From Deltaproteobacteria bacterium (lineage in GTDB: Bacteria > Desulfobacterota > Dissulfuribacteria > Dissulfuribacterales > UBA3076), in contig JAFDDO010000003.1 in NCBI GenBank assembly GCA_019310825.1, positions 1 to 33,546 of the forward strand: 33,546 nucleotides of DNA, given 5' to 3'. The notes under the pieces are model-generated. The model saw nothing but the letters and a program-made list of their open reading frames with translations, made no database searches and was not told where the DNA came from. The stretch's first letter is position 1, and each line of letters begins with the position of its first letter. Position numbers and translations under genes: made by a program. Below are positions 1-22,896 of this stretch, piece after piece.

Positions 1-746
1 TCAGGTCAAGAAGCAACTCTGTCCAGGACAATTCGCTTTCCCTGAAGCCGCTCTCCAGGGCGAGCAGTTCTTTTTTGCCGTCTTTCGTGGCTCCAATGAT
101 CACCAGAAGGCATTGCCTTTCTTCCATCCGTACATTGCAATAGATACCGTCAGCCCAAATATATACGTACCGCTTATGAGACAAATCGCGTTTTTGCCAT
201 TGTTCCAAATCCTCTTGCCAGATGGTTTTGAGACGGCTGATAGTTGAGGCAGACAATCCGGGTGCATCTTTACCCACCAGTGCTGCCAGTGCATCGCTGA
301 AATCACCAGTGGAGATGCCTTTCAAGTAGAGCCACGGTATCAGTTCTTCCATACTTTTTGTCTTTCGGAGGTAAGGAGGCAATAAGGAGGAATTAAATCG
401 AATAGGCCCCGATTCGTGATCCGGTTGGCGATCCCTGGCACGAGGAACCTTAACTGATACCGGACCAATTCCGGTTTGAATTTCGCGCTCAGGAAGATAA
501 CCATTACGCACCACTCTTTGGTACTCCTGATTGTCCCTGAGCTCCCTGTACTGGGACAAAAAGCCTTCTATCTCTGCTTCTAAGGCTTCGGCCAACAACT
601 TTCTGGCTCCTGTGCGTAAGATATCGGTAATAAGGTCATCAACAAATGGCTCTGGCTTTTTAAACTCAATTACGTTATCCTTGACTTTAAACATCCTGGA
701 AGGATACACCGCCTAACCTCTCAAACACAACTTTCGATTATATCTC
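1..746 (-). mobile_element. IS256-family insertion sequence, left end and 5' part (continues beyond the window start)
   Basis: The transposase ORF is preceded by an IS-end-like sequence GAGATATAATCGAAAGTTGTGTTTG (revcomp of 722-746). A receiver-domain reading frame starts abruptly mid-domain at this point. Confidence 0.85.
2..694 (-). CDS. IS256 (Mutator) family transposase, N-terminal 231 codons; absent from the ORF track because it runs off the window
   Basis: Manual translation: MFKVKDNVIEFKKPEPFVDDLITDILRTGARKLLAEALEAEIEGFL...VVRNGYLPEREIQTGIGPVSVKVPRARDR...LPPYLRKTKSMEELIPWLYLKGISTGDF...YIWADGIY...LLVIIGATKDGKKELLALESGFRESELSW. RNGY, VPRxR, GIST, the first catalytic Asp (WADG) and GxKELL are IS256 hallmarks. 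Open frame throughout. Confidence 0.93.
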   Translation of the reverse strand, partial: MFKVKDNVIEFKKPEPFVDDLITDILRTGARKLLAEALEAEIEGFLSQYRELRDNQEYQRVVRNGYLPEREIQTGIGPVSVKVPRARDRQPDHESGPIRFNSSLLPPYLRKTKSMEELIPWLYLKGISTGDFSDALAALVGKDAPGLSASTISRLKTIWQEDLEQWQKRDLSHKRYVYIWADGIYCNVRMEERQCLLVIIGATKDGKKELLALESGFRESELSWTELLLDL

Positions 747-1087
747 GGGATCTGACGACGGAGGTCCTTTCCGTTCATGGTTACAATGTGTTGCCGGCAC
801 AAGACGGCCTCGAGGCCATACATGTCTACAAGGCCTTTGAACACGATATTGACCTTGTGCTCTTGGACATATTCATGCCACGGATGAGCGGCAAAGAGGC
901 CTACGAGAAACTCAAAGAAATCAATCCTGATATCAAGGTATTATTCTGTAGCGGCCATGGCTCAAATCATGAAATATATGAAGCACCAAGAAATGGCGAT
1001 CTGCATTATGTCAGCAAACCTTTTAAAATAGACGAGTTAGTCAGGAAAGTGCGGCAGGTCCTGAACCATGAAGATGCGAGTATTTGA
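747..1087 (+). pseudogene. 5'-truncated receiver (REC) domain, probably the C-terminus of a hybrid histidine kinase interrupted by IS256
   Basis: The frame reads DLTTEVLSVHGYNVLPAQDG...LVLLDIFMP...FCSG...SKPF from the IS end. The first beta-strand and acidic pair (xxxVDDE) are missing, and there is no RBS or start. Confidence 0.75.
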
Positions 1088-1106
1088 AGTGCCTAAAGTG
1101 CCTAAA
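1087..1106. repeat. Tandem 9-mer AAGTGCCTA x2 (same family as 26695-26815 and 30235-30334)
   Basis: aagtgccta aagtgccta aa seen directly; GTGCCTAAAG recurs at 26701 and as revcomp at 30293-30302. Confidence 0.7.
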
Positions 1107-1257
1107 CCTGGATTGAGCGATTAGCTGTTAGCCATTAGCGTTTAGCTTTGGAAAATCAGGGTATTACGTTAATTAGAAATAACACCTAATGGGTGAAGGT
1201 TTGTAATAGCAAAACATCCTGTAATCATTAAACTAATAGCTAATCGCTTAATTTAGG
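1107..1257. repeat. MITE-like element with 25-bp imperfect terminal inverted repeats and (NNTTAGC)n heptamers
   Basis: 1107-1131 cctggattgagcgattagctgttag vs revcomp of 1233-1257 cctaaattaagcgattagctattag (21/25). Heptamers gattagc/tgttagc/cattagc/gtttagc. Confidence 0.7.
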
Positions 1258-1300
1258 TAAGGTTAAGAAATTTGTTTTCTTCAAACTTCACTCCAAAAAA

Positions 1301-2089
1301 TCAGAGGAATTTGTCAAAAATCCGTGTTATTACCTGTACTGCGTCAGTTTTGGTTGAGAGCTTTAGCAGAGATTCCTGGTGGAGCTCACTTTGAAAAATA
1401 TCGTCGCTTACTGGGATACAGCCTCCAAACAAAAGATCGGTTTTTTGTACAACCTCCTGTATCTGGTCCTCCAGTACTTTCGGCAGGTCCTTTGGCACCC
1501 TATTCACTACGAGCACTTTATTTCTTACTTCTAGTTTTAATGCCTTTGTAAGATCAGCTATGCGTGCCGCTGTGACTAACCCCCGGATTGAAGGATCAGA
1601 AACAACAAATAAGGTATGTATTTTCCGGAGATTCAGGCGGCTCAAGTGTTCCATTCCCGCCTCATTGTCGACTATGAGGTAACGGTAACTCCTGGCCAGC
1701 CCCTCTATTACTTGTGCCAGGATCGTGTTGGCCATGCAATAGCATCCGGGGCCTTCGGGCTGACCCATGGCCAGCAGGTCAAAACCTTTGGCCTCTATAA
1801 TGGCACGGTTTATATACATCTCCATATAGTCTCTTTTGGCCATGCCAGGAGGTGTCTCTGTCTTCATCCTCTCCCTGATATCTCCCAGGCTGGTCTCCAC
1901 TGAAAGGCCAACGAGCTCATTAAGATTTTCATTGGCATCGGCGTCCACGGCCAATACCGGAGTTAGACCTTTTCCCACAAGGTATCTGATCAGGAGAGCA
2001 CTGATGGTAGTCTTGCCGGTGCCACCTTTACCGGCCATGGCAAGAATCGGGGCCGTTCCAGGACTATGGATGTTAGAAATCAACTTCAA
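1301..2089 (-). CDS. cooC: CooC/AcsF-type nickel-insertion ATPase (CODH/ACS maturation family)
   Basis: Deviant Walker A GKGGTGKTT, DAD, Ni-binding GCYC and DNEAGMEHLSR signature. Confidence 0.85.
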   Translation of the reverse strand: MKLISNIHSPGTAPILAMAGKGGTGKTTISALLIRYLVGKGLTPVLAVDADANENLNELVGLSVETSLGDIRERMKTETPPGMAKRDYMEMYINRAIIEAKGFDLLAMGQPEGPGCYCMANTILAQVIEGLARSYRYLIVDNEAGMEHLSRLNLRKIHTLFVVSDPSIRGLVTAARIADLTKALKLEVRNKVLVVNRVPKDLPKVLEDQIQEVVQKTDLLFGGCIPVSDDIFQSELHQESLLKLSTKTDAVQVITRIFDKFL

Positions 2090-2626: not shown

Positions 2627-3808
2627 ATGAAGCAATACGCAAAGATTGAAAAAGCAGAACTCTACGCATTAAAAATCCCATTTAAGATAGATTTTACCCA
2701 TGCAATGGCATCCCGCTCCTTTTCTGATTCCCTTATTTTCAAAATTGAGGGGCAAGGGAAAAGGGGATTCGGTGAGGCCATCGTACGAGATTATGTATCA
2801 GGCGAGATCGGAAAAGGTGCAGACCTACTGAAGAATGCCAAAAAAATCATAGCAAGAATCCTTGGACCCATTTTTGAAAAGAATATATCATGGGAAGATG
2901 GAAAAGAGTATTTGGATTCCCTTACCGTCGAATTACACGAACTCCCCCTGTTATGTGCAGTGGAAACAGCGATTCTTGACATGTTTTGTAATAGCTCAGG
3001 GGAAGACATCTATGACCTGTTAAAAAAAGAGCCTCTAAAACAATCAATTCAGTATGGTGGAATCCTTCCTATGCTCCCCCTATCAGCGGCAGAATATTTT
3101 CTGGATATATACGAAAAAGCGAATATACGTAATATACGGATCAAGGTCGGCACTGATTTAGATTACAATGAGGAAATACTTAAGCTTTCACGAGAAAAAC
3201 TAGGGAGGGACTTTGATTTAAGAATAGATGCCAATGCCTCGTGGTCATTAGAGATGGCACTTAATAATCTTAAATTATGCCGGAAGTATGGAATATTTCG
3301 GATTGAAGAGCCTTTTGGTCGGCATAGAGAGGAAATACTCTTTCTTCTTAAGGATCCGGAGAACCGCGATTTTCAATTTGTGGCAGATGAGTCAGCCCTT
3401 ACTGTCAGTGATATAGAAACTATGGCAAAAAATAGAAGTTACCACATGATCAATCTTCGTCTTTCAAAGAATGGAGGACTTCTCAAAATTCTAAAAATGG
3501 CAGAAATCGCCGAAAAAGAGGGACTTCTGTATCAAGTTGGATGTCACGTGGGGGAAACCGGAATCCTCTCTGCACTGGGCCGTGTAGTCGCATCTATCCT
3601 CCCAGAGGCAGTGTATGTTGATGGCTCTTATGATAGTTATCTTCTTTCAGAAAACATAACATCGGAGGATTTCTCTTTTGGTTTTGGCGGAGTGGCTAAA
3701 ATAATAAGGGGGCAGGGATTGGGTTTTACAGTAGATGAAACCAAGCTTAAGAGATTGAGTATTGGGAAAACGCAAGGTCTTCCAAGAATGGGAAACCACG
3801 GTATATGA
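2627..3808 (+). CDS. Enolase superfamily enzyme (muconate cycloisomerase/dipeptide epimerase subgroup), substrate unknown
   Basis: N-terminal GFGEA cap motif, RIKVG, Mg ligands in DAN / EEP / DES, NLRLSKNGG, GCHVGET. Confidence 0.8.
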   Translation: MKQYAKIEKAELYALKIPFKIDFTHAMASRSFSDSLIFKIEGQGKRGFGEAIVRDYVSGEIGKGADLLKNAKKIIARILGPIFEKNISWEDGKEYLDSLTVELHELPLLCAVETAILDMFCNSSGEDIYDLLKKEPLKQSIQYGGILPMLPLSAAEYFLDIYEKANIRNIRIKVGTDLDYNEEILKLSREKLGRDFDLRIDANASWSLEMALNNLKLCRKYGIFRIEEPFGRHREEILFLLKDPENRDFQFVADESALTVSDIETMAKNRSYHMINLRLSKNGGLLKILKMAEIAEKEGLLYQVGCHVGETGILSALGRVVASILPEAVYVDGSYDSYLLSENITSEDFSFGFGGVAKIIRGQGLGFTVDETKLKRLSIGKTQGLPRMGNHGI

Positions 3809-3877
3809 CTATTATTCCTCTTTAACTATGATAAGCGCAACACACTTAGTTTGATTTCACATTTTGGAGGTATGTTA

Positions 3878-4702
3878 ATGTTTGAGATCTTGGAACGTCA
3901 GGATATGGCCGATGGCACAGTGGTTCTTAATGAAATAAGTGCGCCCCTGATTGCCAAAAAGGCTAAACCGGGGCAGTTTGTCATCTTGAAAGCAAATGAA
4001 ACCGGGGAGCGCATTCCGCTCACCATGGCCGACACGGACCCGGATAAGGGTACCATTACAATAATATATCAGGTTGTTGGGAAGAGCACCACCCTGTTTA
4101 AGTCCCTTAAGATAGGTGAGGGATTTCAGGATGTTATTGGTCCTTTGGGGCAGCCTACACATATTGAAAAACTAGGCACTGTTGTGTGTGTTGGAGGGGG
4201 AACCGGTGTTGCTGTTTTGCATCCCATCGCTCGAGGGATGAAAGAAATCGGTAACCATGTCATTGCCATTATCGGTGCCAGAAACAAAGATCTCCTCATC
4301 CTGGAGGACAAAATGAAGGCCGCATCCAATGAGTTGCATGTCTGCACAGACGATGGATCATACGGCCATCATGGGTTTGTGACGGATGTACTCAAAGATA
4401 TCCTGGAAAAGGAAGCAGTTAAACTCGTTGTGGCAATTGGTCCTGTGCCGATGATGAAATTTGTGTGCAGTGTTACGGAGAAGTACAAGGTCAAAACTCT
4501 TGTTAGTCTGAATCCCATCATGGTAGACGGGACAGGCATGTGTGGTTGCTGCCGGGTGAGCGTGGGCGGTAAGACACGGTTTGCCTGTATAGATGGTCCT
4601 GAATTTGACGGGCATGAAGTTGATTTTGACGAACTGATGCAGCGCCTCCAGGCCTATAAGGAGCAAGAGTCTGTTGCATATAAGAAATTCCTGCATGAAT
4701 AA
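3878..4702 (+). CDS. nfnA: Electron-bifurcating transhydrogenase small subunit NfnA (PyrK-like FAD/NAD, 2Fe-2S)
   Basis: PGQFV, ERIPLT, GGGTG, MVDGTGMCGCCRV...CIDGPEF. RBS GGAGG at 3866-3870. Adjacent to an NfnB-like gene. Confidence 0.9.
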   Translation: MFEILERQDMADGTVVLNEISAPLIAKKAKPGQFVILKANETGERIPLTMADTDPDKGTITIIYQVVGKSTTLFKSLKIGEGFQDVIGPLGQPTHIEKLGTVVCVGGGTGVAVLHPIARGMKEIGNHVIAIIGARNKDLLILEDKMKAASNELHVCTDDGSYGHHGFVTDVLKDILEKEAVKLVVAIGPVPMMKFVCSVTEKYKVKTLVSLNPIMVDGTGMCGCCRVSVGGKTRFACIDGPEFDGHEVDFDELMQRLQAYKEQESVAYKKFLHE

Positions 4703-4708
4703 GGTGTT

Positions 4709-6133
4709 ATGGAGAATAAAATGACAGAAAAATCACCTAAAAAAGAAAAGATACCCAGGCAGCCCATGCCTGAGCAGGATCCCCGGATCAGAAAACGGAA
4801 TTTCGAGGAAGTTCCATTGGGATATACAAAGGAACTTGCTGTAAAAGAGGCGGAAAGATGCCTGCAGTGCAAAAAGCCTTCTTGTATGGAAGGGTGTCCG
4901 GTGTCTGTTGACATACCAGGCTTTATCAAAAGCATAAAAGAGGGTGATTTCGCCAAAGCTGTCCGGAAGATATGGGAAAGAAACGCGCTTCCGGCCGTGT
5001 GCGGCAGGGTTTGCCCACAAGAGATCCAGTGTGAAGGCAAATGCATCCTTGGCAAAAAGGGAAAGCCTGTGGCGATTGGCAATTTGGAGAAGTTTGTTGC
5101 GGATATGGAACGGGAGCACGGCGATGGAAAACTCCCGCCCAAGAATGATCCAACGGGGAAAAGGATAGCCGTAGTAGGGTCCGGTCCCTCCGGCCTGACT
5201 GTTGCCGGAGACCTTATTCTCAAGGGTCATGAAGTGACAATTTTCGAGGCCTTTCACAAACCGGGCGGTGTTCTTGTATATGGTATTCCGGAATTCAGGC
5301 TTCCTAAAGATATAGTTTATTCGGAGGTAAGTACCCTTGAGAAATTGGGGGTAAAAGTTGAATGCAATACAGTGGTAGGAAGGACCGTTTCACTGGATGA
5401 ACTCTTTGAACAGGGCTATGATGCCATCTACGTCGGAGTGGGTGCCGGACTACCCCGGTTTCTGAACATACCGGGAGAAAACCTGATCGGTATATATTCG
5501 GCAAACGAGTATCTGACCCGGGCCAATCTTATGAAGGCATACCTGTTTCCTGAATACGATACTCCCCTTGCCAGAGGTAAAAATGTAGTTGTGTTTGGAG
5601 CCGGAAATGTAACTATGGATTCCGCACGGACTGCCATGCGTCTGGGTGCCGACAGGGTACGCATCGTTTACCGCAGGTCCCGGGATGAAATGCCTGCCCG
5701 ATCCGCAGAAATTCATCACGCAGAAGAGGAAGGCATTGAGTTTTCTCTCCTCACAGCGCCTATAAGGTTCCTGGGTGATGAGAATGCCCGTCTGACAGGT
5801 GTGGAGTGTCTCCAGATGAAATTGGGTGAGCCTGACGAATCCGGGCGACGGCGTCCCATACCCATAGACGGCTCAGAGTTCAAGCTGGAGTGCGACCTGG
5901 CGGTTATTGCTGTTGGTGCAGGGGCCAATCCCCTTTTGACCAAGTCAACCGAGGATTTAAAAGTCAACAAGTGGGGTTATATTGTTGCAGATCCTGAGAC
6001 AGGTAAGACTATGAAAAAAGGGGTATGGGCCGGTGGAGACATAGTTACAGGCCAGGCCACGGTCATTTTGGCCATGGGGGCAGGCAGAAAGGCCTCTGAT
6101 TCCATACATCAGTACCTTACATGGGGGTGGTAA
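4709..6133 (+). CDS. nfnB: Transhydrogenase large subunit NfnB (GltD-like flavo-iron-sulfur protein); start may be ATG 4721
   Basis: CLQC..PSCMEGCP, CGRVCPQEIQCEGKC, GSGPSGL, YGIPEFRLP, GGDIVTG. No gltB nearby. Confidence 0.9.
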   Translation: MENKMTEKSPKKEKIPRQPMPEQDPRIRKRNFEEVPLGYTKELAVKEAERCLQCKKPSCMEGCPVSVDIPGFIKSIKEGDFAKAVRKIWERNALPAVCGRVCPQEIQCEGKCILGKKGKPVAIGNLEKFVADMEREHGDGKLPPKNDPTGKRIAVVGSGPSGLTVAGDLILKGHEVTIFEAFHKPGGVLVYGIPEFRLPKDIVYSEVSTLEKLGVKVECNTVVGRTVSLDELFEQGYDAIYVGVGAGLPRFLNIPGENLIGIYSANEYLTRANLMKAYLFPEYDTPLARGKNVVVFGAGNVTMDSARTAMRLGADRVRIVYRRSRDEMPARSAEIHHAEEEGIEFSLLTAPIRFLGDENARLTGVECLQMKLGEPDESGRRRPIPIDGSEFKLECDLAVIAVGAGANPLLTKSTEDLKVNKWGYIVADPETGKTMKKGVWAGGDIVTGQATVILAMGAGRKASDSIHQYLTWGW

Positions 6134-12832: not shown

Positions 12833-13828
12833 TCAAGAACCCTCCCCCTTTTTTATTTCTTCATGAAATATTACTTTATTACCCCCTGTTTTTTTTGCGG
12901 CATACATTGAGTCATCAGCTTTACGTATAAAATCGTCAATATCTTCGCGCAATTCCTTGTTTGTTCTCCTGAAGCGGGAGACACCTATGCTAAGTGAAGT
13001 CTTACCTATGTCCTCGTTCAGGTAATTGCTCCGTATACGTTCTGCTATCTGGTTTACCTGCTCTGTGTCAGCCTGGGGAATCATTACAGCAAATTCATCT
13101 CCTCCATAGCGAAATGGAGTATCAACATTACGCCTGATGGAATTACCTAGCACCTTGGCCAAGCGCTGGAGCACATGTTCTCCTGCCTGATGCCCCAATG
13201 TGTCGTTCAGCTCCTTGAAATTGTCCAGGTCTAATATGATTAGAAAAAGAAAATAATTTTGGCGGGTGGCCCTTTGGGCTTCCTCTTCCAGCTTATTGTC
13301 GAGAAAGCGCCTGTTGTATAGGTCTGTAAGGACATCTCTTACGGAAAGTCGTTCCAACAGGGCTCTATATCCACGTTCCCTGATTATTCTGTTGAGCTTG
13401 GCCTCTAACTCGTCCAGGTAAAAAGGTTTTTGAATGAAGTCACATGCTCCAGCTTTAATAACGTCGGTGTAATTAAAGTCTCGACCATATCCTGTTATTG
13501 CTATCACATCGGTTTCAGGCCAAAATTTTTTGATATTCAGGATAAGCTCCATTCCATCCATCCTGGGCATCAGAAAGTCAGTGATTACGATGGTACTGGG
13601 GGACTGCTCCAACAATGATATGGCCTCCATACCGTCAGTTGCTGTACGACATTGGTGCCCCAAACGGGAAAGGAATTCTGCCAATAAGTTTAAGATGGTA
13701 GGATCGTCGTCAACAATTAGCAGTTGTTGTGTTTCTTGTGGCAGATTTTTTGGGATAAAATCTATTTGGCTTTCAGATGATTCTAAAATTTCAGACAACA
13801 CAGCCTCCGAGACTTTATTGGTATACAA
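12833..13828 (-). CDS. Response-regulator diguanylate cyclase (REC-GGDEF)
   Basis: REC: IVDDD, ITDFLMP, ITG, QKPF. GGDEF domain: DVLTDLYNRR, DLDNFKELNDTLGH, I-site RNVD five residues before RY-GGDEF. Confidence 0.93.
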   Translation of the reverse strand: MYTNKVSEAVLSEILESSESQIDFIPKNLPQETQQLLIVDDDPTILNLLAEFLSRLGHQCRTATDGMEAISLLEQSPSTIVITDFLMPRMDGMELILNIKKFWPETDVIAITGYGRDFNYTDVIKAGACDFIQKPFYLDELEAKLNRIIRERGYRALLERLSVRDVLTDLYNRRFLDNKLEEEAQRATRQNYFLFLIILDLDNFKELNDTLGHQAGEHVLQRLAKVLGNSIRRNVDTPFRYGGDEFAVMIPQADTEQVNQIAERIRSNYLNEDIGKTSLSIGVSRFRRTNKELREDIDDFIRKADDSMYAAKKTGGNKVIFHEEIKKGEGS

Positions 13829-13837
13829 GGTTATCTT

Positions 13838-13909
13838 GAATCAATTGATTCAGAAATTGCGAATTTAAGGAATTGATGGTTGTTTTATTGATTCCAATTC
13901 CTCAATTCG
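13838..13909. repeat. 14-bp perfect palindrome plus an inverted GAATT-unit repeat
   Basis: GAATCAATTGATTC (13838-13851). cgaatttaaggaattg (13860-13875) vs revcomp of caattcctcaattcg (13895-13909). Confidence 0.6.
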
Positions 13910-14068
13910 AGATTATTTATAATAATTTAAAGAGAACAAAACAAGATATTCTTTGATTCTATAAAAATAACAACTTTGTTGATTTTGATTCGCCTCCTTG
14001 CTAAGATTAAATTGATTTTTCAGTTAATATTTTCAATCAAGGGTATTTTTCTTCAAGCCAAATAATAA

Positions 14069-15154
14069 ATGGACTTAATGATTGGCAATAGCCCACCTAT
14101 CAGGCGCATCAAGGATCTGATCAATCAGGTAGTGAACACCGATTTGAATGTCCTTATTTGTGGAGAAAGTGGCGTAGGGAAAGAACTGGTTGCCCGCACT
14201 CTACATGAGCTTTCTTCTCGTCGAGATTATCCTCTAGTCAAGGTTAACTGCGCTGCGCTACCAAGCGAACTTCTGGAAAGCGAACTATTTGGTTATGAGC
14301 GTGGTGCATTTACTGGAGCAGTACAACCAAAGCCGGGAAAATTCGAGTTAGCCAACGAAGGAACCATACTGCTTGATGAAATTGGCGATATGCCTGTTGC
14401 ACTGCAGGCCAAACTTTTACAGGTATTACAAGATTCTGAATTCGCTCGTGTAGGCGGGGTGAGGAATATTCATGTCAATACCTGGGTGATATCTGCCACT
14501 AATCACAACCTTAATGAAGATGTAAGAAAAGGGAGGTTTAGAGAAGATTTCTATTACCGAATCAATATTATAAAGATAGTGGTGCCACCCCTTCGGGACA
14601 GAAAAGAAGATATTCCATACCTTCTTGAACACTTTATCCGAAAGTACAGAGGCATGTCGAAGGGTGGAGTAATTGATATCTCCGGTAAACTTGAAAAGGT
14701 ATTTGCTGAATATAATTGGCCAGGAAATATAAGGGAGCTTGAGAACTATGTTAGAAGGTTGATAGTCCTTAAAGATCCTGATTTGCTTAAAGAAGAGATC
14801 CTTGGGTCTATGGGCCAACAGATGTCGGAAGATCGACCTATTGCTGAATTATGGACGCCGGATGAATCCCTTATAAATTCAGTGCTCGATAACTGCAGAC
14901 AAGAAATGCAAACACAGTTCCCATCTTTAAAGAAAATCCGGAAAAAGAGTCTGGCCCGCATTGAAAAGGTAGTAATAGAAGAGGCCATCAAGCGGACTAA
15001 TGGTAATCGCAAAAAGGCTGCTCAGCTACTCCAAATAAGTTACAAGGCACTTCTTTATAAGATAAAAGATTTTGGGGTAAAAGTGTCGGCCATAGATTCA
15101 TCTGACGATAGCTTGGAGCTAAAGCTGCCGAAAGAACTGGAGCCATTTGTATAA
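14069..15154 (+). CDS. Sigma-54 enhancer-binding protein without an N-terminal regulatory domain (AAA+ and Fis-type HTH only)
   Basis: Starts MDLMIGNS directly at the AAA+ domain. GESGVGKE, ESELFG, GAFTGA, LLDEIGDM, FREDFYYR, WPGNIRE; HTH NRKKAAQLLQISYKALLYKIK. Confidence 0.93.
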   Translation: MDLMIGNSPPIRRIKDLINQVVNTDLNVLICGESGVGKELVARTLHELSSRRDYPLVKVNCAALPSELLESELFGYERGAFTGAVQPKPGKFELANEGTILLDEIGDMPVALQAKLLQVLQDSEFARVGGVRNIHVNTWVISATNHNLNEDVRKGRFREDFYYRINIIKIVVPPLRDRKEDIPYLLEHFIRKYRGMSKGGVIDISGKLEKVFAEYNWPGNIRELENYVRRLIVLKDPDLLKEEILGSMGQQMSEDRPIAELWTPDESLINSVLDNCRQEMQTQFPSLKKIRKKSLARIEKVVIEEAIKRTNGNRKKAAQLLQISYKALLYKIKDFGVKVSAIDSSDDSLELKLPKELEPFV

Positions 15155-15176
15155 TTTTTTATAGTTGCAATGTAAT

Positions 15177-15210
15177 AGAAAAGCTTTTCCATTTGTGGAA
15201 AAGCTTTTCT
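15177..15210. promoter_or_regulatory. Tandem palindromes GAAAAGCTTTTC x2: candidate upstream activator sequence and/or terminator hairpin
   Basis: Perfect 12-bp palindromes at 15178-15189 and 15198-15209 (20-bp period). Together they also form a 15-bp-stem hairpin followed by a T-rich run. Confidence 0.6.
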
Positions 15211-15278
15211 TATTTTGTTAAAGACGCCCAGATATTAGGCTGCATTCTCAGCATTAAATTAGTAAAAAAAAATTTATT

Positions 15279-15295
15279 TTGGTATCTTATTTGCA
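15279..15295 (+). promoter_or_regulatory. Sigma-54 (-24/-12) promoter
   Basis: TTGGTATCTTATTTGCA: GG(15281-82)-N10-GC(15293-94), matching TGGCAC-N5-TTGCW with exact spacing, upstream of RBS TAAGGAG and GTG 15358. Confidence 0.8.
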
Positions 15296-15357
15296 TTTAA
15301 ATTATCACTTAATAAATTATTCCCCCTAACATGACAATTTTTCCATAAGGAGACTCT

Positions 15358-16809
15358 GTGCAGCAAGGAGTCCATAGAGATCGGCGTCGATTTTTTCGAA
15401 TACCGTTAAATCTTCCGCTGTGTTTAAAAACAGGGCCCCTTGGATCTGCAACGAGTGTAGTTTCAACTGATCTGAGTCCGTATGGTATTCAAATTAAGTC
15501 TGATAGCCCTGTCAGTCTTCATGAGACTGTGACCATCAGGCCCGGCAAAAAAGGCCTCAAGACCGATTATGTTGCGAAAGGGCAAATTAAGTGGGTTAAA
15601 CGAGAAAAAGGCAAATTTAGAAGTGGAATAGCCTTTGAAGACGCAATTGATTGGCCTTTTTCTATTTCTGATCTAGGTAAAGGCATTGAGACTGAACTCA
15701 GCCGTTCGATTTATTTTCAATACATTTTAGACAGCCTGGATGATGGGGTTCTTATCTTTGATTCCAAGCTCAATATTGTTTCCTCCAATATTAATCAGCC
15801 ATTCTGCTTGCCAAGAGATCCTGAAAAACTCCGGGGAAAACATTTTACAGAGGTCTGTTCACTATTTAAGAATTCTAAAGGAGAAGGTTCTCTTAAAGAA
15901 CTATTAGATAAAGCCATGGTTGATAGAGAAGAGGTTAGGATAAGCGCTTTTCCTTGCGACTTGCCGTGGCTAAATGATACGGATTGTCATAGATATTATA
16001 ATATTTGGCTTTTGCCTTTAATCGGCCCTGGGGGTACAAAAGGTCTGGTTTTGCGCAATCGCGATGTTACTGCACTGCGCCGGCTCCAGGATAGGGAAAA
16101 AGCTAGGGAAGAGACCCAGTGGCAACAATACAGGCATTTCATTTTTGGTCAACTGTTCGATGATCTCCTTGAGGATATTGCAAATCCTTTATCTGCAATT
16201 ATTGGGCGTCTCGATCTTATGACTCAAAAAATGTCCAGCGCTGAAACTCCCATAGGTGAAACACAGGTCAAGGCTTGGGTCTCTGATATCAAGTCAATTC
16301 AGATCATAACAGGTCAAATAACGGAATTTTGTTGGGCCATTGCTTTTAGAAGGAAAAATGAGACAATAAAAGAAGCGGTGCCGTTTTCTTTGAATAGTTT
16401 AATAGAAGATGAGCTAAGAATTTTAGATCTCCATTTCTTTTTCAGGAAAATAGACAAGCAGGTATCATTATCTCCCGATCTTCCGCCACTTCATGTATGT
16501 TATTCAGAGTGGGCCAATGCGTTTTTAGCTCTGTGTCTAGTGCTGATGAGGCAGATGTCAACCCTCAGCAATATGCGGATGTCGATTCAGACTTTTAAGG
16601 AGAATGAAGACTTGGTCCTCCGCATCGTCCACAACGGTAAAGCCTTGAATACGCCTTTAGATAAAGATCCTGCCCTTAATATTTTGGCGCTCTTGAAAAA
16701 GAAATATGGAGTTCATATATACGTTTCAGGTGATTCGGGTTTTCAGACAGTGATACTTAAGATGGCAATACCAAAGATGCAAGAACCGTCAGGAAACTTC
16801 ATTTCCTGA
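15358..16809 (+). CDS. PilZ-PAS protein with a degenerate histidine-kinase core (pseudokinase)
   Basis: PilZ motifs RRFFR and DLSPYG. PAS-like ILDSLDDGVLIFD...N...RDVT. H-box-like LEDIANPLSAIIG lacks His; N/G1 boxes eroded, F/G2 boxes missing. Confidence 0.8.
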   Translation: MQQGVHRDRRRFFRIPLNLPLCLKTGPLGSATSVVSTDLSPYGIQIKSDSPVSLHETVTIRPGKKGLKTDYVAKGQIKWVKREKGKFRSGIAFEDAIDWPFSISDLGKGIETELSRSIYFQYILDSLDDGVLIFDSKLNIVSSNINQPFCLPRDPEKLRGKHFTEVCSLFKNSKGEGSLKELLDKAMVDREEVRISAFPCDLPWLNDTDCHRYYNIWLLPLIGPGGTKGLVLRNRDVTALRRLQDREKAREETQWQQYRHFIFGQLFDDLLEDIANPLSAIIGRLDLMTQKMSSAETPIGETQVKAWVSDIKSIQIITGQITEFCWAIAFRRKNETIKEAVPFSLNSLIEDELRILDLHFFFRKIDKQVSLSPDLPPLHVCYSEWANAFLALCLVLMRQMSTLSNMRMSIQTFKENEDLVLRIVHNGKALNTPLDKDPALNILALLKKKYGVHIYVSGDSGFQTVILKMAIPKMQEPSGNFIS

Positions 16810-16839: not shown

Positions 16840-17199
16840 TCATTTCGTTAAATTTCTGCGAACAGAGGACTTGAGATCATCTAAGTTGAAGGATTTAACT
16901 ATATAGTCATCTGAGGCCCACGATGCCAAATCCTGTTTATACTCAGGATAAGCAGAACTCAAGATAACAGGCACCCTTGGTTTTTTCTGTTTCATTTGAC
17001 GCAGCACTTCTATGCCGTCCATACCAGGCATATTGATGTCCAGGATGACAAGGTCCGGTTCCTGAGCGTCAAAGGCCTTAAGGGCATCTTCTCCGCTCAT
17101 CGCCGAGTAGACTTCATAGCCTTCTTCTTCCAACTCTTCCTTGTAAAGGAGATGAATACTCTCTTCGTCATCAACTATGAGTATTTTTTCTTTATTCAT
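16840..17199 (-). CDS. Single-domain response regulator (REC)
   Basis: ILIVDDE, VILDINMPGMDG, LSSAY, VKS. Confidence 0.92.
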   Translation of the reverse strand: MNKEKILIVDDEESIHLLYKEELEEEGYEVYSAMSGEDALKAFDAQEPDLVILDINMPGMDGIEVLRQMKQKKPRVPVILSSAYPEYKQDLASWASDDYIVKSFNLDDLKSSVRRNLTK

Positions 17200-17273: not shown

Positions 17274-18275
17274 TTAGTCTAAATTGATTTCTCTGAGAAA
17301 CTGTGCGGACTCTTCAGGTGGGGTAGGATTGACATAAAATCCGGTACCCCACTCAAACCCTGCCATTGTGGTCACCTTGGGCATTATTTCTATATGCCAG
17401 TGATAGTGTTCCAGAAAAGGGCTGCGTAGCGGAGCCGTGTGCAACATATAATTGTAAGGGACTCCGGGGAGGGCTTTGTCAAGGCGCTGCATTGTCTCCA
17501 GAAATAGGTCTGTCAATAGGTGAAATTGATTATCGTCCATGGAAACATAAGAGGATTGGTGTTTCTTAGGCATCAGCCACATCTCAAAAGGCGAACGGGG
17601 TGCAAAGGGACAAATCGTGATAAAATTATTATTTTCACATACTATTCTTATGTCTTGGGACTTTTCCTGACGGATGATGTCACAAAAGATACAGCGTTCC
17701 TTAAATTCATAATAGTGCAAACTGCTTTGGATCTCTTCCTGTATCCGGTGAGGTACGATAGGAAGAGCAATAAGCTGAGAATGTGAATGTTCTAGAGAAG
17801 CACCTGCAGCCCGGCCGAAATTTTTGAAAACTATTATGTAGCGAAAGCGGAAATCCTGTGCCAAATCAAGCATCCGGTCCCTGTAGGCCCAAAAGGTCTG
17901 GATAAGCTGTTCATGAGACATCATGGGGATAGTTTCGTCGTGCCTAGGAGTATCTATTATAACCTCATGAGCACCGATGCCATTCATTTTATCGTAAATA
18001 CCTTCGCCCCGTTTGTTCAAATCTCCTTCTATAACTAGTGCTGGGAATTTGTTCGGGACTACCCTGAGGGTCCAGCCTGGTCCATTTGGTGAATAGTTCG
18101 ACCGTCCATAAGCCAGAACTTCAGGTGGGGTAGTATGTTCATTCCCTGGGCATAAAGGACAGAACCCTCCCTTAGTCTTGTCTTTTTCAATGACAAAATC
18201 GTATGGACGTTTCCCTCTTTCCTTGGCGATAATAACCCATCGGCCTATAATTGTATCCCTGCGTAGTTCGGGCAT
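17274..18275 (-). CDS. galT: GalT-family hexose-1-phosphate nucleotidyltransferase
   Basis: MPELRRD...CPLCPGNE, VPNKFPAL, GAHEVII, FKNFG..AGASLEHSHSQ. RBS GAGGA precedes ATG 18275. Confidence 0.9.
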   Translation of the reverse strand: MPELRRDTIIGRWVIIAKERGKRPYDFVIEKDKTKGGFCPLCPGNEHTTPPEVLAYGRSNYSPNGPGWTLRVVPNKFPALVIEGDLNKRGEGIYDKMNGIGAHEVIIDTPRHDETIPMMSHEQLIQTFWAYRDRMLDLAQDFRFRYIIVFKNFGRAAGASLEHSHSQLIALPIVPHRIQEEIQSSLHYYEFKERCIFCDIIRQEKSQDIRIVCENNNFITICPFAPRSPFEMWLMPKKHQSSYVSMDDNQFHLLTDLFLETMQRLDKALPGVPYNYMLHTAPLRSPFLEHYHWHIEIMPKVTTMAGFEWGTGFYVNPTPPEESAQFLREINLD

Positions 18276-18285
18276 TTGGGATTCC

Positions 18286-20454
18286 TCAAACCAGCCAAAG
18301 CCTGCGTTCAAAGTCCTCATCAGGTACTTGAAGCACTATATAGCCCTCACGAGGCCATCTATCTCTAACCAATTTTTTTTGTATTATTTCAACATAAAAA
18401 GTCAATTCATCTTTGGGGTTGGAGTCCAGAAGTACAAAAGGTATTGCCACTTCTGCCAGTTCATTTAGAGCGCACCTTACTCCTGTTTCGTGAAAAACAA
18501 GAGACTTTCCGTTTTTTAAAAGCCTTAATTTTTCGTTAAAGGGGTCTATAAGCCTGCTGGTGATCAGTTCGATAATTATTGTAGCCTTAGATGAGACGGT
18601 TATTTTAAGGCCTAGATCCGGCTCCCAGACATCAAAGCTCCCCTCTCTGGGATCTATCCTCAGATAAAACGACTCAAGATCAAAGCCATATGCAATCTCA
18701 GCCAGCGGACTTGCTCCGGAATGCATGGCTCCCCCGTGGCTTCCCAAGCTTAGTGATCCTGCGCCTCTCCACTCGCCATAACAGCTCAAGCGTCCATCAA
18801 TTTGTGGGTGTATAAAACACGTTGGTTCAGTAGTAGGTATTGCTGGTCTTTGAGCCCTGAGCGGACTTAGCAGTTCATCAGGAACTGTCATATTAAGACT
18901 ATTATAGACCTTTTTGAGATGAGTCCGGAAAAGGTGGTCAAATTCATAGGCATAATCAGTCTCAAATTGGTCTCCATACCACCAGAACCAGTCACTGCCT
19001 TCAGCAGCAAAAATAGATTCCATGGCCATATTAACGGCCTCTTCAGTTATGTTTTCCTGTCTTTTAGCATTATCGATGGCCTTCCTTGCACGACCAAGAG
19101 CGTCCCATGCCCGGTTTTCATCCTGCCCACCAATCCAGATGCCGAAATCATGGTTTATCCAAGAGCCTGTATATAGACCCGGCAAGGTGCGTGTCGGCGG
19201 ATGATTTTCCAGATATTGACCAATGGTCACAAGTTCAAGCATTGGTTCTTTGATAATTGCATCATATAGGCCTGTCAAAAAGGATTCACCACCGTCATGA
19301 TAATACTCCCATGGATTTTCTCCATCCAAAATTATAGCAATAAAAGGGGAACGTTCCATTCCCTGAAGGCCGCTACAGATTTTCTTTAGCCTGGAGACAA
19401 AGTCAGTGATTGCAGCCTGAGGTTGGTTTTTCTGATAAACGAAGCCTATCAGATCTGAAAGCTTATGGTGGCGAAAGACCATGTCTGTGCGGCAGCCATT
19501 TATTTCCACTCTATAAGGCTGGAATAGACTTTGAGATTCTATTTTCTCAAGTGAATTGAATAGTATAGCTTCGTCTGTTGCTGTCCAGGAGAATCCAGCC
19601 TCTTCAATAATAGGGATAAGCTCAGGGGCAACGGAGCCTTCCGATGGCCAGAGTCCTACAGGGGTCTTCCCTAAGACCTCCTTACAGTAATGCCTACCTC
19701 TTTCCAGTTGTGTTCTGGCGTCTTCCGGGCAAGTAAATCGCAAAGGGAGTCTGGTCTCCTGCCTGGACCTTTTCCCAAAATCCGAATCGATTAGCAGGGG
19801 GAGAATAGGATGATAGAATGGACTGATACTGATCTCTATCTGTCCTTCGATCCATTTTGAACTATAACGGGGAATGAGTCCTTTCATAAGTTCAAGATGG
19901 AAGTCCAGGAGATTCATCTTTTCTTTCTCGCTGAAAGACTGTCCTTTTTGAAAAAGAGAACTTATCAAGGGGTAATTTCTCGATGAAAAACCGACCCAGG
20001 TGAGATTAAACCAGACCTGAAGGTCTAAATAGTCCTGAGTTGAAAATTTCTTTCTCACTTGGGAAAAATAAGATGGGCCAAAGTCCCTTCCTCGCAACTC
20101 GAGCAGTTGCAGGTACCTCTTGTAGGGTTCTACCATAGTGGGCCATTGGCAGCTGAAAAAATGTGTCAGGATGAATTCCTGGTCTGAAGGGGAAAGCTCG
20201 TTGGCAGGGCGACGGCTCAATTCCAGGAAGTCGTCGGTTTTGCCCTGTATATAAGACTGGATTTGGAGAAGAAGGGATGGAACAAGATTAAAAGTTACCT
20301 TTGCCTCAGGCCTGGAGTCCAGACATGCTATCATGTCAGAGTAAGCCTTTACAGCATGGAGCCTGACCCATGGCATCGCAAAGCGATCCCATATCGGGTC
20401 AAGATACAGAGGTTGATGCATATGCCAAAGAAAGGCAACATATAACTGCTGCAT
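18286..20454 (-). CDS. Glycoside hydrolase family 57 (amylopullulanase/alpha-amylase type)
   Basis: WHMHQP, PFYHPILPLL, nucleophile WPSEG, acid/base LDGENPWE, AEGSDWFWW. The start overlaps the dksA stop (TAATG). Confidence 0.92.
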   Translation of the reverse strand: MQQLYVAFLWHMHQPLYLDPIWDRFAMPWVRLHAVKAYSDMIACLDSRPEAKVTFNLVPSLLLQIQSYIQGKTDDFLELSRRPANELSPSDQEFILTHFFSCQWPTMVEPYKRYLQLLELRGRDFGPSYFSQVRKKFSTQDYLDLQVWFNLTWVGFSSRNYPLISSLFQKGQSFSEKEKMNLLDFHLELMKGLIPRYSSKWIEGQIEISISPFYHPILPLLIDSDFGKRSRQETRLPLRFTCPEDARTQLERGRHYCKEVLGKTPVGLWPSEGSVAPELIPIIEEAGFSWTATDEAILFNSLEKIESQSLFQPYRVEINGCRTDMVFRHHKLSDLIGFVYQKNQPQAAITDFVSRLKKICSGLQGMERSPFIAIILDGENPWEYYHDGGESFLTGLYDAIIKEPMLELVTIGQYLENHPPTRTLPGLYTGSWINHDFGIWIGGQDENRAWDALGRARKAIDNAKRQENITEEAVNMAMESIFAAEGSDWFWWYGDQFETDYAYEFDHLFRTHLKKVYNSLNMTVPDELLSPLRAQRPAIPTTEPTCFIHPQIDGRLSCYGEWRGAGSLSLGSHGGAMHSGASPLAEIAYGFDLESFYLRIDPREGSFDVWEPDLGLKITVSSKATIIIELITSRLIDPFNEKLRLLKNGKSLVFHETGVRCALNELAEVAIPFVLLDSNPKDELTFYVEIIQKKLVRDRWPREGYIVLQVPDEDFERRLWLV

Positions 20455-20816
20455 TATATGCCTCTGGCCTTTTCCTCCCTTTCTTGCTTGGACTTGCACT
20501 CAATGCAACGGGTTGTGACAGGTCTGGCCGTCAGCCGTTTAGCACATATTTCTTCACCACAATCTTCACAGAGGCCATAAGTCTCATTTTCGATCCTCTC
20601 TAAGGCCTTATTGATTTTTTTTATGAGCTTTCTCTCCCTATCTCTGATACGCAGCTCGAAACTACGATCAGACTCTACGGACGCCCGATCTGTTGGGTCA
20701 GGAAAGTGGTTGTTCATGTCAGTCATCTCTTCCAGAGTCTTGTCCGCTTCCCCTAAAAGATCATCGAGTTTTTTCTGGAGTAGGCTGCGAAAATACTCCA
20801 GTTGGGCCTGTTCCAT
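20454..20816 (-). CDS. dksA: RNA polymerase-binding transcription factor DksA
   Basis: Coiled-coil tip DPTDRA (DxxDxA), RDRERKLIKKI, C4 zinc finger CEDC...CIEC. Confidence 0.95.
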   Translation of the reverse strand: MEQAQLEYFRSLLQKKLDDLLGEADKTLEEMTDMNNHFPDPTDRASVESDRSFELRIRDRERKLIKKINKALERIENETYGLCEDCGEEICAKRLTARPVTTRCIECKSKQEREEKARGI

Positions 20817-20829
20817 GCTAGTATTCTCC

Positions 20830-21315
20830 TCAGAACTTTCTTTTCCAGGTTCCGCTCTTTCCGCCGGTTTTATAATCTAGTTGTATTTTTTCAATAGTTA
20901 TATTTTTCTCTACTGACTTGCACATATCGTAAATGGTCAAAGCAGCAACTGAAACAGCTGTTAGTGCTTCCATTTCTACGCCAGTAGAGCCTTTTGCCTT
21001 TACACGTGCCAAAATTTCTATAGCATTTTTCTCTGAGTCCGGAGTAAAGTCAATCTCTATTTTTTGTAAGCTTAAAGGATGACAAAGGGGAATCAAGGTT
21101 TCCACTTTTTTGGCAGCCATGATCCCCGCTATCCTGGCCACAGCCAGAACATCGCCTTTTGAGATTTTACTGTCAATAAGAAGATTAAAGGCACTAGGTC
21201 CTATTATTACCTGACCTAAAGCAACTGCTTCCCTTTGGGTCATAGATTTTAGGCTTACGTCCACCATGTGGGCCTGCCCCTTCTTGTTCAGATGAAAAAA
21301 TGAGTTCTTGCTCAA
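20830..21315 (-). CDS. moaC: Cyclic pyranopterin monophosphate synthase MoaC
   Basis: [41 protein letters not shown]. Confidence 0.96.
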
Positions 21316-22451
21316 GACGTCCTCTCATGACCGGAGTGCCCATGTGCTTCGGATCGTTTAAACAATTTACGAAAGAAGCCGCCTTCTTTTTTTTCTTTTT
21401 CGATATCTGCGAATTCCTGAAGCAGGGCACATTGGCGCTCTGTCAACTTGGCTGGTGTTACAACAGCAACTTCAATTATCTGATCCCCGGCTCCAAATCC
21501 TCTTAGATCAGGAATGCCAAGTCCTTTCAGCCTAAAGTGCTCTCCTGTCTGAGTTTCTGCCGGAATTTTTAAGTTGCGGGATCCATCCAGGGTGGATACT
21601 TCAACTTCGTCTCCCAGGGCTGCCTGTACAATAGAAATAGGAAGGCGAAAATATATGTCATTGCCATGACGTTCGAAAAAGTCATGGGGTTTTACGTGTA
21701 TTACTATATAGAGATCCCCCCTGGGCCCATCCCTGAGACCGGCCTCGCCCTCACTCCTCAGGCGCAATCTTGATCCTGTATCTACACCTGCAGGAATACG
21801 TACCCTCACCTTATGTCGTTCTCTTACTCTGCCTTGACCTTGGCATACCTGGCAGGGGTCTGTGATAATTGTTCCGCTTCCGGAACAATGTGGACAAGTG
21901 GAGGAAATCCTGAAAAACCCTTCCGACCTTATTATTTGGCCTCTTCCCTGGCAAGTAGGACAGGTAGTAGGACGGCTTCCGGAGGCCATACCTGTTCCTT
22001 TGCAGATGGAACAGGACTCAAGACGAACGATCTCTATTTCAGTCTCCGCACCTCTGGCAGCATCTTCAAATAAAACCTCAAGGTTGTATCTTAGATCTGC
22101 ACCCGCCTCTGGCCCCATGGATACGTCATGTTTTCGGTGAGTAGTAGAAAAACCGAACAGGTCTTCAAACAAATCGCCAAAGTTATTAAATATGTCTTGT
22201 GGTCCGGAAAAACCCCTAAAACCGTTCCCGGCTATTCCTTCGTAACCGTAAAGGTCATAGGTCTGCCTTTTCTGAGGATCTCTGAGCACTTCATAGGCCT
22301 CTGCCGCCTCCTTGAAGTATTCCTCTGCGTCTTTATCACCCTGGTTTTTATCAGGATGATATTTTAAGGCCAGCTTCCGATAGGCTTTTTTTAGTTCTTC
22401 AGATGAGCAGTCTCGGGAGACCTCCAATATCTCATAGTAGTCTTTTTTCAT
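21312..22451 (-). CDS. dnaJ: Chaperone DnaJ (class A)
   Basis: J domain with HPD, G/F region, four CxxCxGxG repeats. Confidence 0.96.
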
Positions 22452-22740: not shown

Positions 22741-22896
22741 TATATATTCTCCAGTTAAAAAATAGCATAGTATTAATAAGTGGATAGTGTTTTGGGCTTA
22801 AATTTTCAGGATTAAACCTCTCGCCCTTTCGGGATATCAGAAAGCCAAAAATACTGCATCATTTCGGCCAATACGATGTTAAACCGTAGGATATTT

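Follow-up and report, generated by a model that had tools for sequence, protein, structure and literature searches.

The locus and its genes

The window, that is the whole stretch of 33,546 nucleotides analysed here (contig JAFDDO010000003.1 of assembly GCA_019310825.1, from a Deltaproteobacteria bacterium of the order Dissulfuribacterales), encodes a sigma-54 activator, or bacterial enhancer-binding protein (bEBP), without any input domain. On the same strand it is followed by a gene for a protein joining a PilZ domain and a PAS domain to a histidine-kinase-like module, composed of a dimerization and histidine phosphotransfer (DHp) domain and a catalytic and ATP-binding (CA) domain, whose phospho-acceptor histidine is replaced; we call this protein the pseudokinase. 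The 203-bp intergenic stretch between bEBP and pseudokinase genes holds both copies of the palindrome GAAAAGCTTTTC as well as the sigma-54 promoter element TGGTATCTTATTTGCA, and the two genes are referred to below as the cassette. A diguanylate cyclase gene and a gene for a single-domain receiver (REC) flank it on either side. An earlier note on this DNA had listed cyclase, bEBP, palindromes, promoter and pseudokinase, and the presence of all of them is confirmed at the following positions (window coordinates):

12833-13828, minus strand: REC-GGDEF diguanylate cyclase (Pfam; REC E 1e-26, GGDEF E 2.8e-41)
13979-14007, plus strand: candidate sigma-70-like promoter of the bEBP gene, TTGATT, 17 bp, TAAGAT (read by eye; putative function)
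14069-15154, plus strand: sigma-54 activator (bEBP) of 361 amino acids (aa), AAA+ domain with GAFTGA and Fis-type helix-turn-helix (HTH) (Pfam)
15178-15189, no strand: distal enhancer (upstream activating sequence) copy GAAAAGCTTTTC, core GAAA-N4-TTTC (sequence and comparison)
15198-15209, no strand: proximal enhancer copy GAAAAGCTTTTC, 82 bp 5' of the promoter element (sequence and comparison)
15280-15295, plus strand: sigma-54 -24/-12 promoter TGGTATCTTATTTGCA (TGGTAT-N5-TTTGCA), GG and GC 12 bp apart
15347-15352, plus strand: Shine-Dalgarno sequence AAGGAG, ending 5 bases before the GTG start at 15358 (kept in in-genus loci)
15358-16809, plus strand: PilZ-PAS-DHp-CA pseudokinase, 483 aa, GTG start (Pfam, profile match, AlphaFold2 model)
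15379-15651, plus strand: PilZ domain of the pseudokinase (approximate)
15712-16068, plus strand: PAS domain (approximate)
16069-16362, plus strand: DHp domain, E272 in place of His (approximate)
16375-16767, plus strand: degenerate CA domain (approximate)
16840-17199, minus strand: single-domain receiver (REC), 119 aa, convergent with the pseudokinase gene (Pfam)

In what follows, labels beginning with G, L and C denote genomes, loci and contigs, respectively, G000 being the window's own genome of 2.16 Mb, in which RpoN is also encoded. In the cyclase translation the GGDEF motif is intact and is preceded by an RxxD I-site (RNVD, then five residues up to GGDEF), and its best NCBIfam match is the PleD family, with a score under the cut-off.

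The activator, its probable enhancer sites and the two-gene unit

The bEBP starts directly with its AAA+ domain. Specifically, Sigma54_activat (PF00158) covers residues 4-170 (E 1.3e-67, 227 bits) and is followed by AAA_lid_14 and HTH_8 (48 bits) in the Pfam search, and the open reading frame, taken at its longest possible extent, has zero residues ahead of the AAA+ domain. In an alignment of 24 orthologues the GAFTGA, Walker A (GESGVGKE) and Walker B (DEIGDM) motifs are invariant; the orthologues are all 355-369 aa long and start at the AAA+ domain, apart from a shorter one clipped by the contig start. Among the 16 bEBP-like genes of the genome, that of the cassette alone encodes no residues N-terminal to the AAA+ domain. 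With its AAA+ domain, GAFTGA and Walker motifs, HTH_8 and conserved upstream sites, the protein has the features of enhancer-binding proteins and is predicted to bind DNA, and the missing N-terminal regulatory domain places it in the input-domain-less class of PspF and HrpR/S. It scored under the NCBIfam cut-off for the NifA equivalog (TIGR01817; 342.8 vs 528.85) and no GAF domain was found in it with Pfam. The candidate sigma-70-like promoter is largely kept in 8 in-genus loci, and a consensus promoter scan did not flag it. An activator that has no sensor and is preceded by a conserved sigma-70-like promoter suggests that its activity is governed either in trans or by how much of it is present.

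Two side observations concern the surroundings of this gene. An 8-bp unit, CAATTCCT, is repeated in variable number between the cyclase and bEBP genes (13880-13925 in the window), with about one copy in the window and about five in L036. In addition, some relatives carry insertions of 130-215 bp, located 5' of the bEBP gene in L038 and between the bEBP stop codon and the enhancer in L025 (genome G011) and L044.

A scan of species-representative genomes returned 34 loci encoding a pseudokinase relative, all of them in hosts labelled Thermodesulfobacteriota, Deltaproteobacteria, Thermodesulfatator or Desulfobacterales metagenome-assembled genomes (MAGs); the named relatives bear the labels Thermodesulfobacteriota or Deltaproteobacteria MAG, and 'SeepSRB2' appears in one contig name. 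Wherever the upstream side lies on the contig (31 of 31 loci), a bEBP orthologue of 53-91% identity is found immediately 5' of the PilZ gene and co-directional with it. Among 40 relatives of the same order, 21 carry both genes, 17 carry neither and in none does the bEBP orthologue stand alone, with one genome having the PilZ gene only (G022, in which this gene lies 321 bp from the contig end) and one being ambiguous (G035, a partial match on a short contig). The absence of both genes extends to the same genus, as in G001 and G004, which are 95-97% complete. In conclusion, the bEBP and pseudokinase genes are a unit that is kept or lost whole among uncultured sulfate-reducer relatives.

The flanking genes follow a different pattern. 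We fetched the cassette-less locus from 5 of the 17 genomes lacking both genes (G001 and G004, and the other-genus genomes G019, G021 and G023), and in all five the single REC gene is followed 115-270 bp 3', in the same orientation, by the REC-GGDEF gene, in the order GalT, REC, cyclase. A REC orthologue, 79-99% identical, is carried by 39 of the 40 relatives, or by 40 of 41 genomes when G000 is counted, independently of the cassette, and no sequence difference in REC was seen in an alignment of 31 cassette-bearing loci, window included, with the five cassette-less ones. The cyclase adjoins the bEBP in 15 loci; in at least four cassette-bearing loci with at least 4 kb of upstream sequence it is not beside the bEBP, with a dCache-HAMP-PAS hybrid kinase there instead in one of them. 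From this distribution, and from the adjacency in cassette-less genomes, the cyclase and REC genes appear as a conserved backbone and the cassette as a separate block of two genes inserted or deleted between them. The earlier note had proposed a candidate self-contained circuit including the cyclase, and in the strict sense this finds no support; the bEBP-PilZ pair is indeed kept together, and the cyclase falls outside the unit. That the cassette lies between two receiver genes may nonetheless have significance.

As to the backbone itself, the conservation of REC across the whole order is unusually strong for a receiver. The stretch SSAYPEYKQDLASWASDDYIVKSF is nearly invariant, being identical in 32 of 36 aligned rows with one change in each of the other four, and the gene lies 3' of the GalT-like gene in 37 loci examined and 5' of the REC-GGDEF gene in the five cassette-less ones. 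In the window, REC is the end of a conserved string on the minus strand (17274-22451) made of DnaJ, MoaC, DksA, a 737-aa gene and a GalT-like HIT-family gene. The 737-aa gene, which we take to be GH57-like, returned no NCBIfam family, and at least two distant loci have the string without it. A weaker -24/-12-like match, TGGCCGAAATGATGCA, is located at 22855-22870 on the minus strand, in the divergent region 5' of dnaJ.

The intergenic stretch of the cassette carries a distinctive arrangement of sites. The GAAAAGCTTTTC pair is the sole exact tandem pair of this sequence in the genome. All 32 evaluable intergenic regions (the window and 31 others) contain a GG-N10-GC element together with two or more copies of GAAA-N4-TTTC, counted with one mismatch allowed, and in each of them the proximal copy starts 81-85 bp 5' of the promoter element. 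Extra copies, up to a total of 2-3, are spaced 20-30 bp 5' of the proximal copy and of each other; the intergenic sequence outside the sites is diverged, and identity of the downstream pseudokinase falls to 25-41%. The same geometry test was passed by 2 of 6400 dinucleotide-preserving shuffles and by 1 of 19,990 random 250-bp windows of the genome. In addition, 4 of the 990 sigma-54-like sites in the genome show the enhancer geometry, and only the cassette locus has two perfect copies. Promoter and enhancer geometry combined are thus far above chance.

The two palindromes jointly also form a hairpin with a 15-bp stem and a T-rich tail (15177-15210), flagged as terminator-like by a consensus scan, and the loose promoter pattern TGG-N9-TGCW occurs at chance level in the window (9 seen vs 10.7 expected), as would be the case if the repeats were a plain intrinsic terminator of the bEBP gene and the -24/-12 match a coincidence. 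We regard this as extremely improbable, given that the GAAA-N4-TTTC sequence itself is kept, beyond mere pairing potential, that the copy number varies, that the distance to the promoter is fixed in every evaluable locus and hardly ever reproduced in the shuffled and random controls, and that beyond the genus the T-tail becomes weak or disappears, as few as 1-4 of 12 bases being T. The conserved motif, the variable copy number and the fading T-tail lead us to read the repeats as protein-binding enhancer sites, which within the genus may double as terminator and enhancer.

All together, the invariable adjacency of the two genes, their co-presence and co-absence among the 40 relatives and the conserved geometry strongly support the earlier proposal that the bEBP drives the PilZ gene, and we conclude that the bEBP very probably activates the sigma-54 promoter of the pseudokinase gene. 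Contigs from two metatranscriptome libraries cover parts of the bEBP gene (14181-14998), of the REC and GalT genes and of the PilZ gene (for example 15810-16086 and 16629-16766); being 90-95% alike to the window, they come from relatives. No RNA data set was listed as containing the stretch itself. The intergenic region 15044-15417 is uncovered by the contigs of these two libraries, which stem from relatives; such libraries can contain DNA and the contigs carry no transcript-start information.

The PilZ pseudokinase and its possible partners

In the pseudokinase, Pfam recognised PilZ (PF07238; 26.4 bits vs a cut-off of 22.5) and PAS_4 (25.6 vs 23.1), and the C-terminal 240 residues were matchless, with neither HisKA nor HATPase_c detected at E<=0.01. 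The AlphaFold2 model (mean predicted local distance difference test score 80.3, predicted template modelling score 0.49) displays a PilZ barrel, modelled as six strands and then a helix, a PAS fold, a two-helix DHp hairpin and an alpha/beta CA domain. When this model was compared with the PDB through Foldseek, the top matches were PAS/LOV histidine kinases (4gcz, E 5e-15), with ThkA and DivL (4q20_B) also present and the NifL chain 9qq6_A at rank 10 (E 6e-13). Similarly, a profile of 11 orthologues matches the PAS-DHp portion of Thermotoga ThkA (PDB 3a0r_A, E 2.6e-7), in which the phospho-acceptor His aligns with E272, a Glu in 24 of 24 orthologues. Using the N, G1 (DxGxG) and G2 boxes as we take them to be defined, the CA domain has a G1 box that reads H425-N426-G/A, with His in place of Asp, lacks the N-box Asn in 2 of 24 orthologues and has only a short segment between G1 and the last strand, where the ATP lid would be. 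The PilZ motifs RxxxR and (D/N)xSxxG are kept, R10, R14, D/N39 and G43 being present in all 24 orthologues and S41 in 18, with T, N or C elsewhere.

Thus, at the level of sequence, the earlier claim of a PilZ domain competent for binding cyclic di-GMP (c-di-GMP) in a dead kinase stands, and the pseudokinase is likely to be a non-kinase c-di-GMP receptor in which the module for dimerisation and docking is still intact. Since autophosphorylation is not expected and the PilZ motifs are intact, it should report c-di-GMP through protein contact, and it probably signals in this way and not by phosphorylation. A conservation index, calculated on 19 rows after genus thinning, is 0.78 for DHp helix 1, 0.58 for CA, 0.46 for PAS and 0.42 for PilZ. 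The version in G037 (366 aa) has no PAS domain, which leaves PilZ, DHp and CA as the core.

A profile search of 1.84 billion representatives returned 16 proteins at E<=1e-30, followed by a gap to 1e-26, which makes the pseudokinase family a narrow one. Its members are called 'PilZ domain-containing', 'PAS domain-containing', 'hypothetical' or 'signal transduction histidine kinase' in the sources, and the matches in the ESM Atlas are generic PAS and kinase clusters. In the literature covered, which includes two PilZ surveys and leaves supplements and subscription journals outside, a PilZ-fused pseudokinase paired with a bEBP is undescribed. A distant PilZ-PAS-kinase-like family (P0050, P0086 and P0048; about 500-626 aa, 17-19% identity) is also without His in its H-box and has a longer lid-like insert; a search of 401 genomes of the phylum, run without a positive control, gave no match to this P0050-type family. 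In one of its loci, L092, the neighbours are uvrC, uvrB, an Rrf2 regulator and a PEP-CTERM protein.

The arrangement described above joins the logic of PspF/PspA to that of NifL/NifA, and for this reason we favour a c-di-GMP-gated anti-activator feedback. In such a scheme the bEBP, probably expressed from a sigma-70-type promoter, would bind the tandem GAAA-N4-TTTC sites that follow shortly after its stop codon and, from a fixed distance of about 82 bp, would activate the sigma-54 promoter of the single downstream gene. The DHp-CA portion of the pseudokinase would in turn attach to the AAA+ domain of the very bEBP that drives its gene, in the manner of NifL and NifA, and the c-di-GMP occupancy of the PilZ domain would set the point of negative autoregulation, with the activator making its own anti-activator as PspF makes PspA. 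As an overall explanation we put this forward tentatively, at somewhat under an even chance; that the pseudokinase feeds back on the bEBP is in itself conceivable, with the balance tilting towards doubt. A further-reaching reading, which we consider rather unlikely, is that sequestration of a sensor-less bEBP by a histidine-kinase-derived, PilZ-gated protein constitutes a route from c-di-GMP to sigma-54 transcription, built as a portable, negatively autoregulated two-gene cassette and relying neither on nucleotide binding by the activator nor on phosphotransfer. A complex prediction with full-length bEBP and pseudokinase (24-row alignment each, controls not run) gave ipSAE values of 0.00 and 0.00 and a mark of 0.32, which count neither for nor against binding.

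Several points weigh against the anti-activator scheme. The contact between pseudokinase and bEBP is one that we infer by analogy, and binding of c-di-GMP by the pseudokinase is predicted from its motifs. The best-conserved segment of the pseudokinase, DHp helix 1, is the receiver-docking surface in true kinases. A pure feedback loop would be without output, so that either the pseudokinase or the bEBP must act elsewhere too; a second output is possible through the two flanking receiver proteins, one of which is a diguanylate cyclase. Furthermore, no bEBP match was found near the distant PilZ-PAS-kinase-like family in 8 metagenome loci (L089-L096), about 4 of which have several kb of flank, and this indicates that such proteins can work without a dedicated bEBP.

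Other sites and activators of the genome bear on the specificity of the cassette sites. On contig C122 of G000 (L075, around 4100-4250 on the minus strand), GAAATATTTTTC occurs twice, 83 and 104 bp 5' of TGGTATCAATCCTGCT, upstream of a DUF3135 gene (3617-3982, minus strand) whose neighbours encode a stand-alone PilZ protein of 131 aa and an HD_5 protein of HD-GYP type. Of 9 evaluable relatives, 6 show the enhancer geometry 5' of DUF3135, the cassette-less G028 among them, and since G028 has neither the cassette bEBP nor a paralogue of the type found on contig C167, the DUF3135 promoter is not assignable to the cassette bEBP. Contig C167 of G000 (L088) encodes two REC-AAA+-HTH bEBPs (558-1820, minus strand, and 4468-5814, plus strand) beside a prepilin peptidase gene. 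The recognition helix of the first, ISLPALLYKIKDYG, closely resembles that of the cassette bEBP, ISYKALLYKIKDFG, and this paralogue could share its DNA motif; its receiver seems N-terminally shortened in G000 compared to orthologues of about 466 aa. The DUF3135 geometry in G028 and the C167 paralogue caution against taking the sites to be specific for the cassette bEBP.

As the main alternative, the pseudokinase might act on receivers and not on the bEBP, either as a binder, like DivL with DivK~P, or as a His-independent phosphatase, gated by c-di-GMP via its PilZ domain. Its targets would be the flanking single REC, the receiver of the cyclase or both, the bEBP would be a dedicated, constitutively active driver, and action on the cyclase receiver would subject c-di-GMP synthesis to feedback by its own product. 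Such a role would agree with the conservation of DHp helix 1, with the presence of DivL (4q20) among the fold matches of the model and with the location of the cassette exactly between the single REC and REC-GGDEF genes, co-directional neighbours where the cassette is missing, in a neighbourhood which we take to resemble the divK-pleD arrangement. However, since gene order is conserved over the whole region this adjacency has little weight; in addition, REC orthologues are equally present and equal in sequence with or without the cassette, the REC gene of G037 is on a different contig, and the cyclase is non-adjacent in the at least four loci mentioned above. A phosphatase function would require Thr or Asn at the H+4 position of HisKA, which is Asn in 15 of 24 orthologues, Ser in 8 and Cys in 1. 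According to PMC3510030, the His-to-Ala variant of CrdS retains most of its phosphatase activity and the N375A variant loses it, whereas PleC H610A also loses phosphatase activity; moreover, the CA domain of the pseudokinase is degenerate. As for binding, another report describes a stand-alone PilZ protein, HapZ, that binds a REC at high c-di-GMP (10.1101/2020.02.11.943704). On balance we judge an action on receivers unlikely, while granting it a real chance.

A split NtrC-type system, in which the stand-alone REC, phosphorylated by another kinase, controls the bEBP in trans and the pseudokinase is the regulated output, appears improbable to us. Layouts of this kind do occur: on contig C35 of G000 (L077, 1-3327) the gene of a second sensor-less bEBP (359 aa) has downstream of it, in the same orientation, two genes for single RECs and one for a PAS-HisKA-HATPase kinase, a gene set that looks like a split NtrC-type system and suggests that this genome tends to keep detached two-component parts beside input-less bEBPs. 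In NCBIfam the REC matches the AtoC receiver best, although only marginally better than OmpR-type receivers. Against such a system, the REC is universal in the order whereas the bEBP is found in about half of the genomes, and the REC gene shares its orientation with the GalT gene cluster and not with the bEBP. Bacterial enhancer-binding proteins that bind c-di-GMP, such as FleQ and VpsR, are known, and the cassette bEBP could in principle sense the nucleotide directly like them, with the PilZ protein as an unrelated effector. This we consider very improbable, because the residue after Walker A varies among orthologues (judged by eye against FleQ motifs) and because the dedicated PilZ domain on the target protein would be left unexplained.

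If the c-di-GMP-gated anti-activator feedback is true, it would represent a third route from c-di-GMP to sigma-54 transcription, besides nucleotide binding by the bEBP (FleQ, VpsR) and PilZ transcription factors, and, following NifL, the second independent instance in which a histidine kinase has become an anti-activator of a bEBP. The cassette could also serve as a c-di-GMP-responsive expression switch. Its small size, with two genes and a defined enhancer and promoter, makes it testable in E. coli despite the uncultured hosts.

Comparison with known systems

The locus is a variant of known trans-regulated, input-less bEBP systems, and its transcriptional architecture is well supported. The closest precedent, which the earlier note does not mention, is NifL-NifA of Azotobacter vinelandii, where a non-phosphorylating, PAS-containing protein derived from a histidine kinase controls the neighbouring bEBP; the equivalent contact is here supposed by analogy. 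According to PMC12998190, NifL's DH and GHKL domains bind the AAA+ domain of NifA in a 2:2 complex. The likeness to NifL is that of the fold match (9qq6_A), and NifL is absent among the PDB profile matches at E<=1, so that no specific sequence kinship is implied. Unlike the pseudokinase, which has PilZ at its N-terminus, NifL senses redox (through a FAD-PAS domain), ADP and GlnK, keeps a nucleotide-binding GHKL domain and is without PilZ. NifA has a GAF domain, which the cassette bEBP lacks, and nifL and nifA are co-transcribed, the anti-activator not being under its activator's own sigma-54 promoter.

Control of the partner gene through the activator's own sigma-54 promoter is instead shared with PspF-PspA of Escherichia coli, in which an input-less bEBP is controlled in trans and the gene of its partner is its direct sigma-54 target, with negative feedback as the outcome; PspA-PspF is also summarised in PMC12998190. 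However, PspA is a coiled-coil membrane-stress effector and not kinase-like, and c-di-GMP is not involved. In addition, the cassette bEBP is not a PspF, given its score of 267.4 bits against the cut-off of 443.55 for the NCBIfam PspF equivalog (TIGR02974).

The Caulobacter DivL-DivK (PleD) system resembles the locus in having a His-less look-alike of a histidine kinase and a REC-GGDEF cyclase gene beside a single-domain receiver gene. DivL signals by binding DivK, which is a single-domain receiver. In contrast to the pseudokinase, DivL has Tyr and not Glu at the His position, and is without PilZ and without sigma-54 control; the corresponding link to REC would be hypothetical here.

FleQ, VpsR and other c-di-GMP-binding bEBPs, as well as the PilZ transcription factor MrkH, likewise couple c-di-GMP to transcription, FleQ through a sigma-54 activator, although there it is the activator or transcription factor itself to which the nucleotide binds, while here the PilZ domain resides on a separate kinase-like target protein. 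Finally, in HapZ-SagS of Pseudomonas aeruginosa a PilZ protein modulates two-component signalling by contact at high c-di-GMP, as described in 10.1101/2020.02.11.943704; there a stand-alone PilZ protein acts on the REC of a real kinase, whereas in the cassette PilZ is fused to a dead one.

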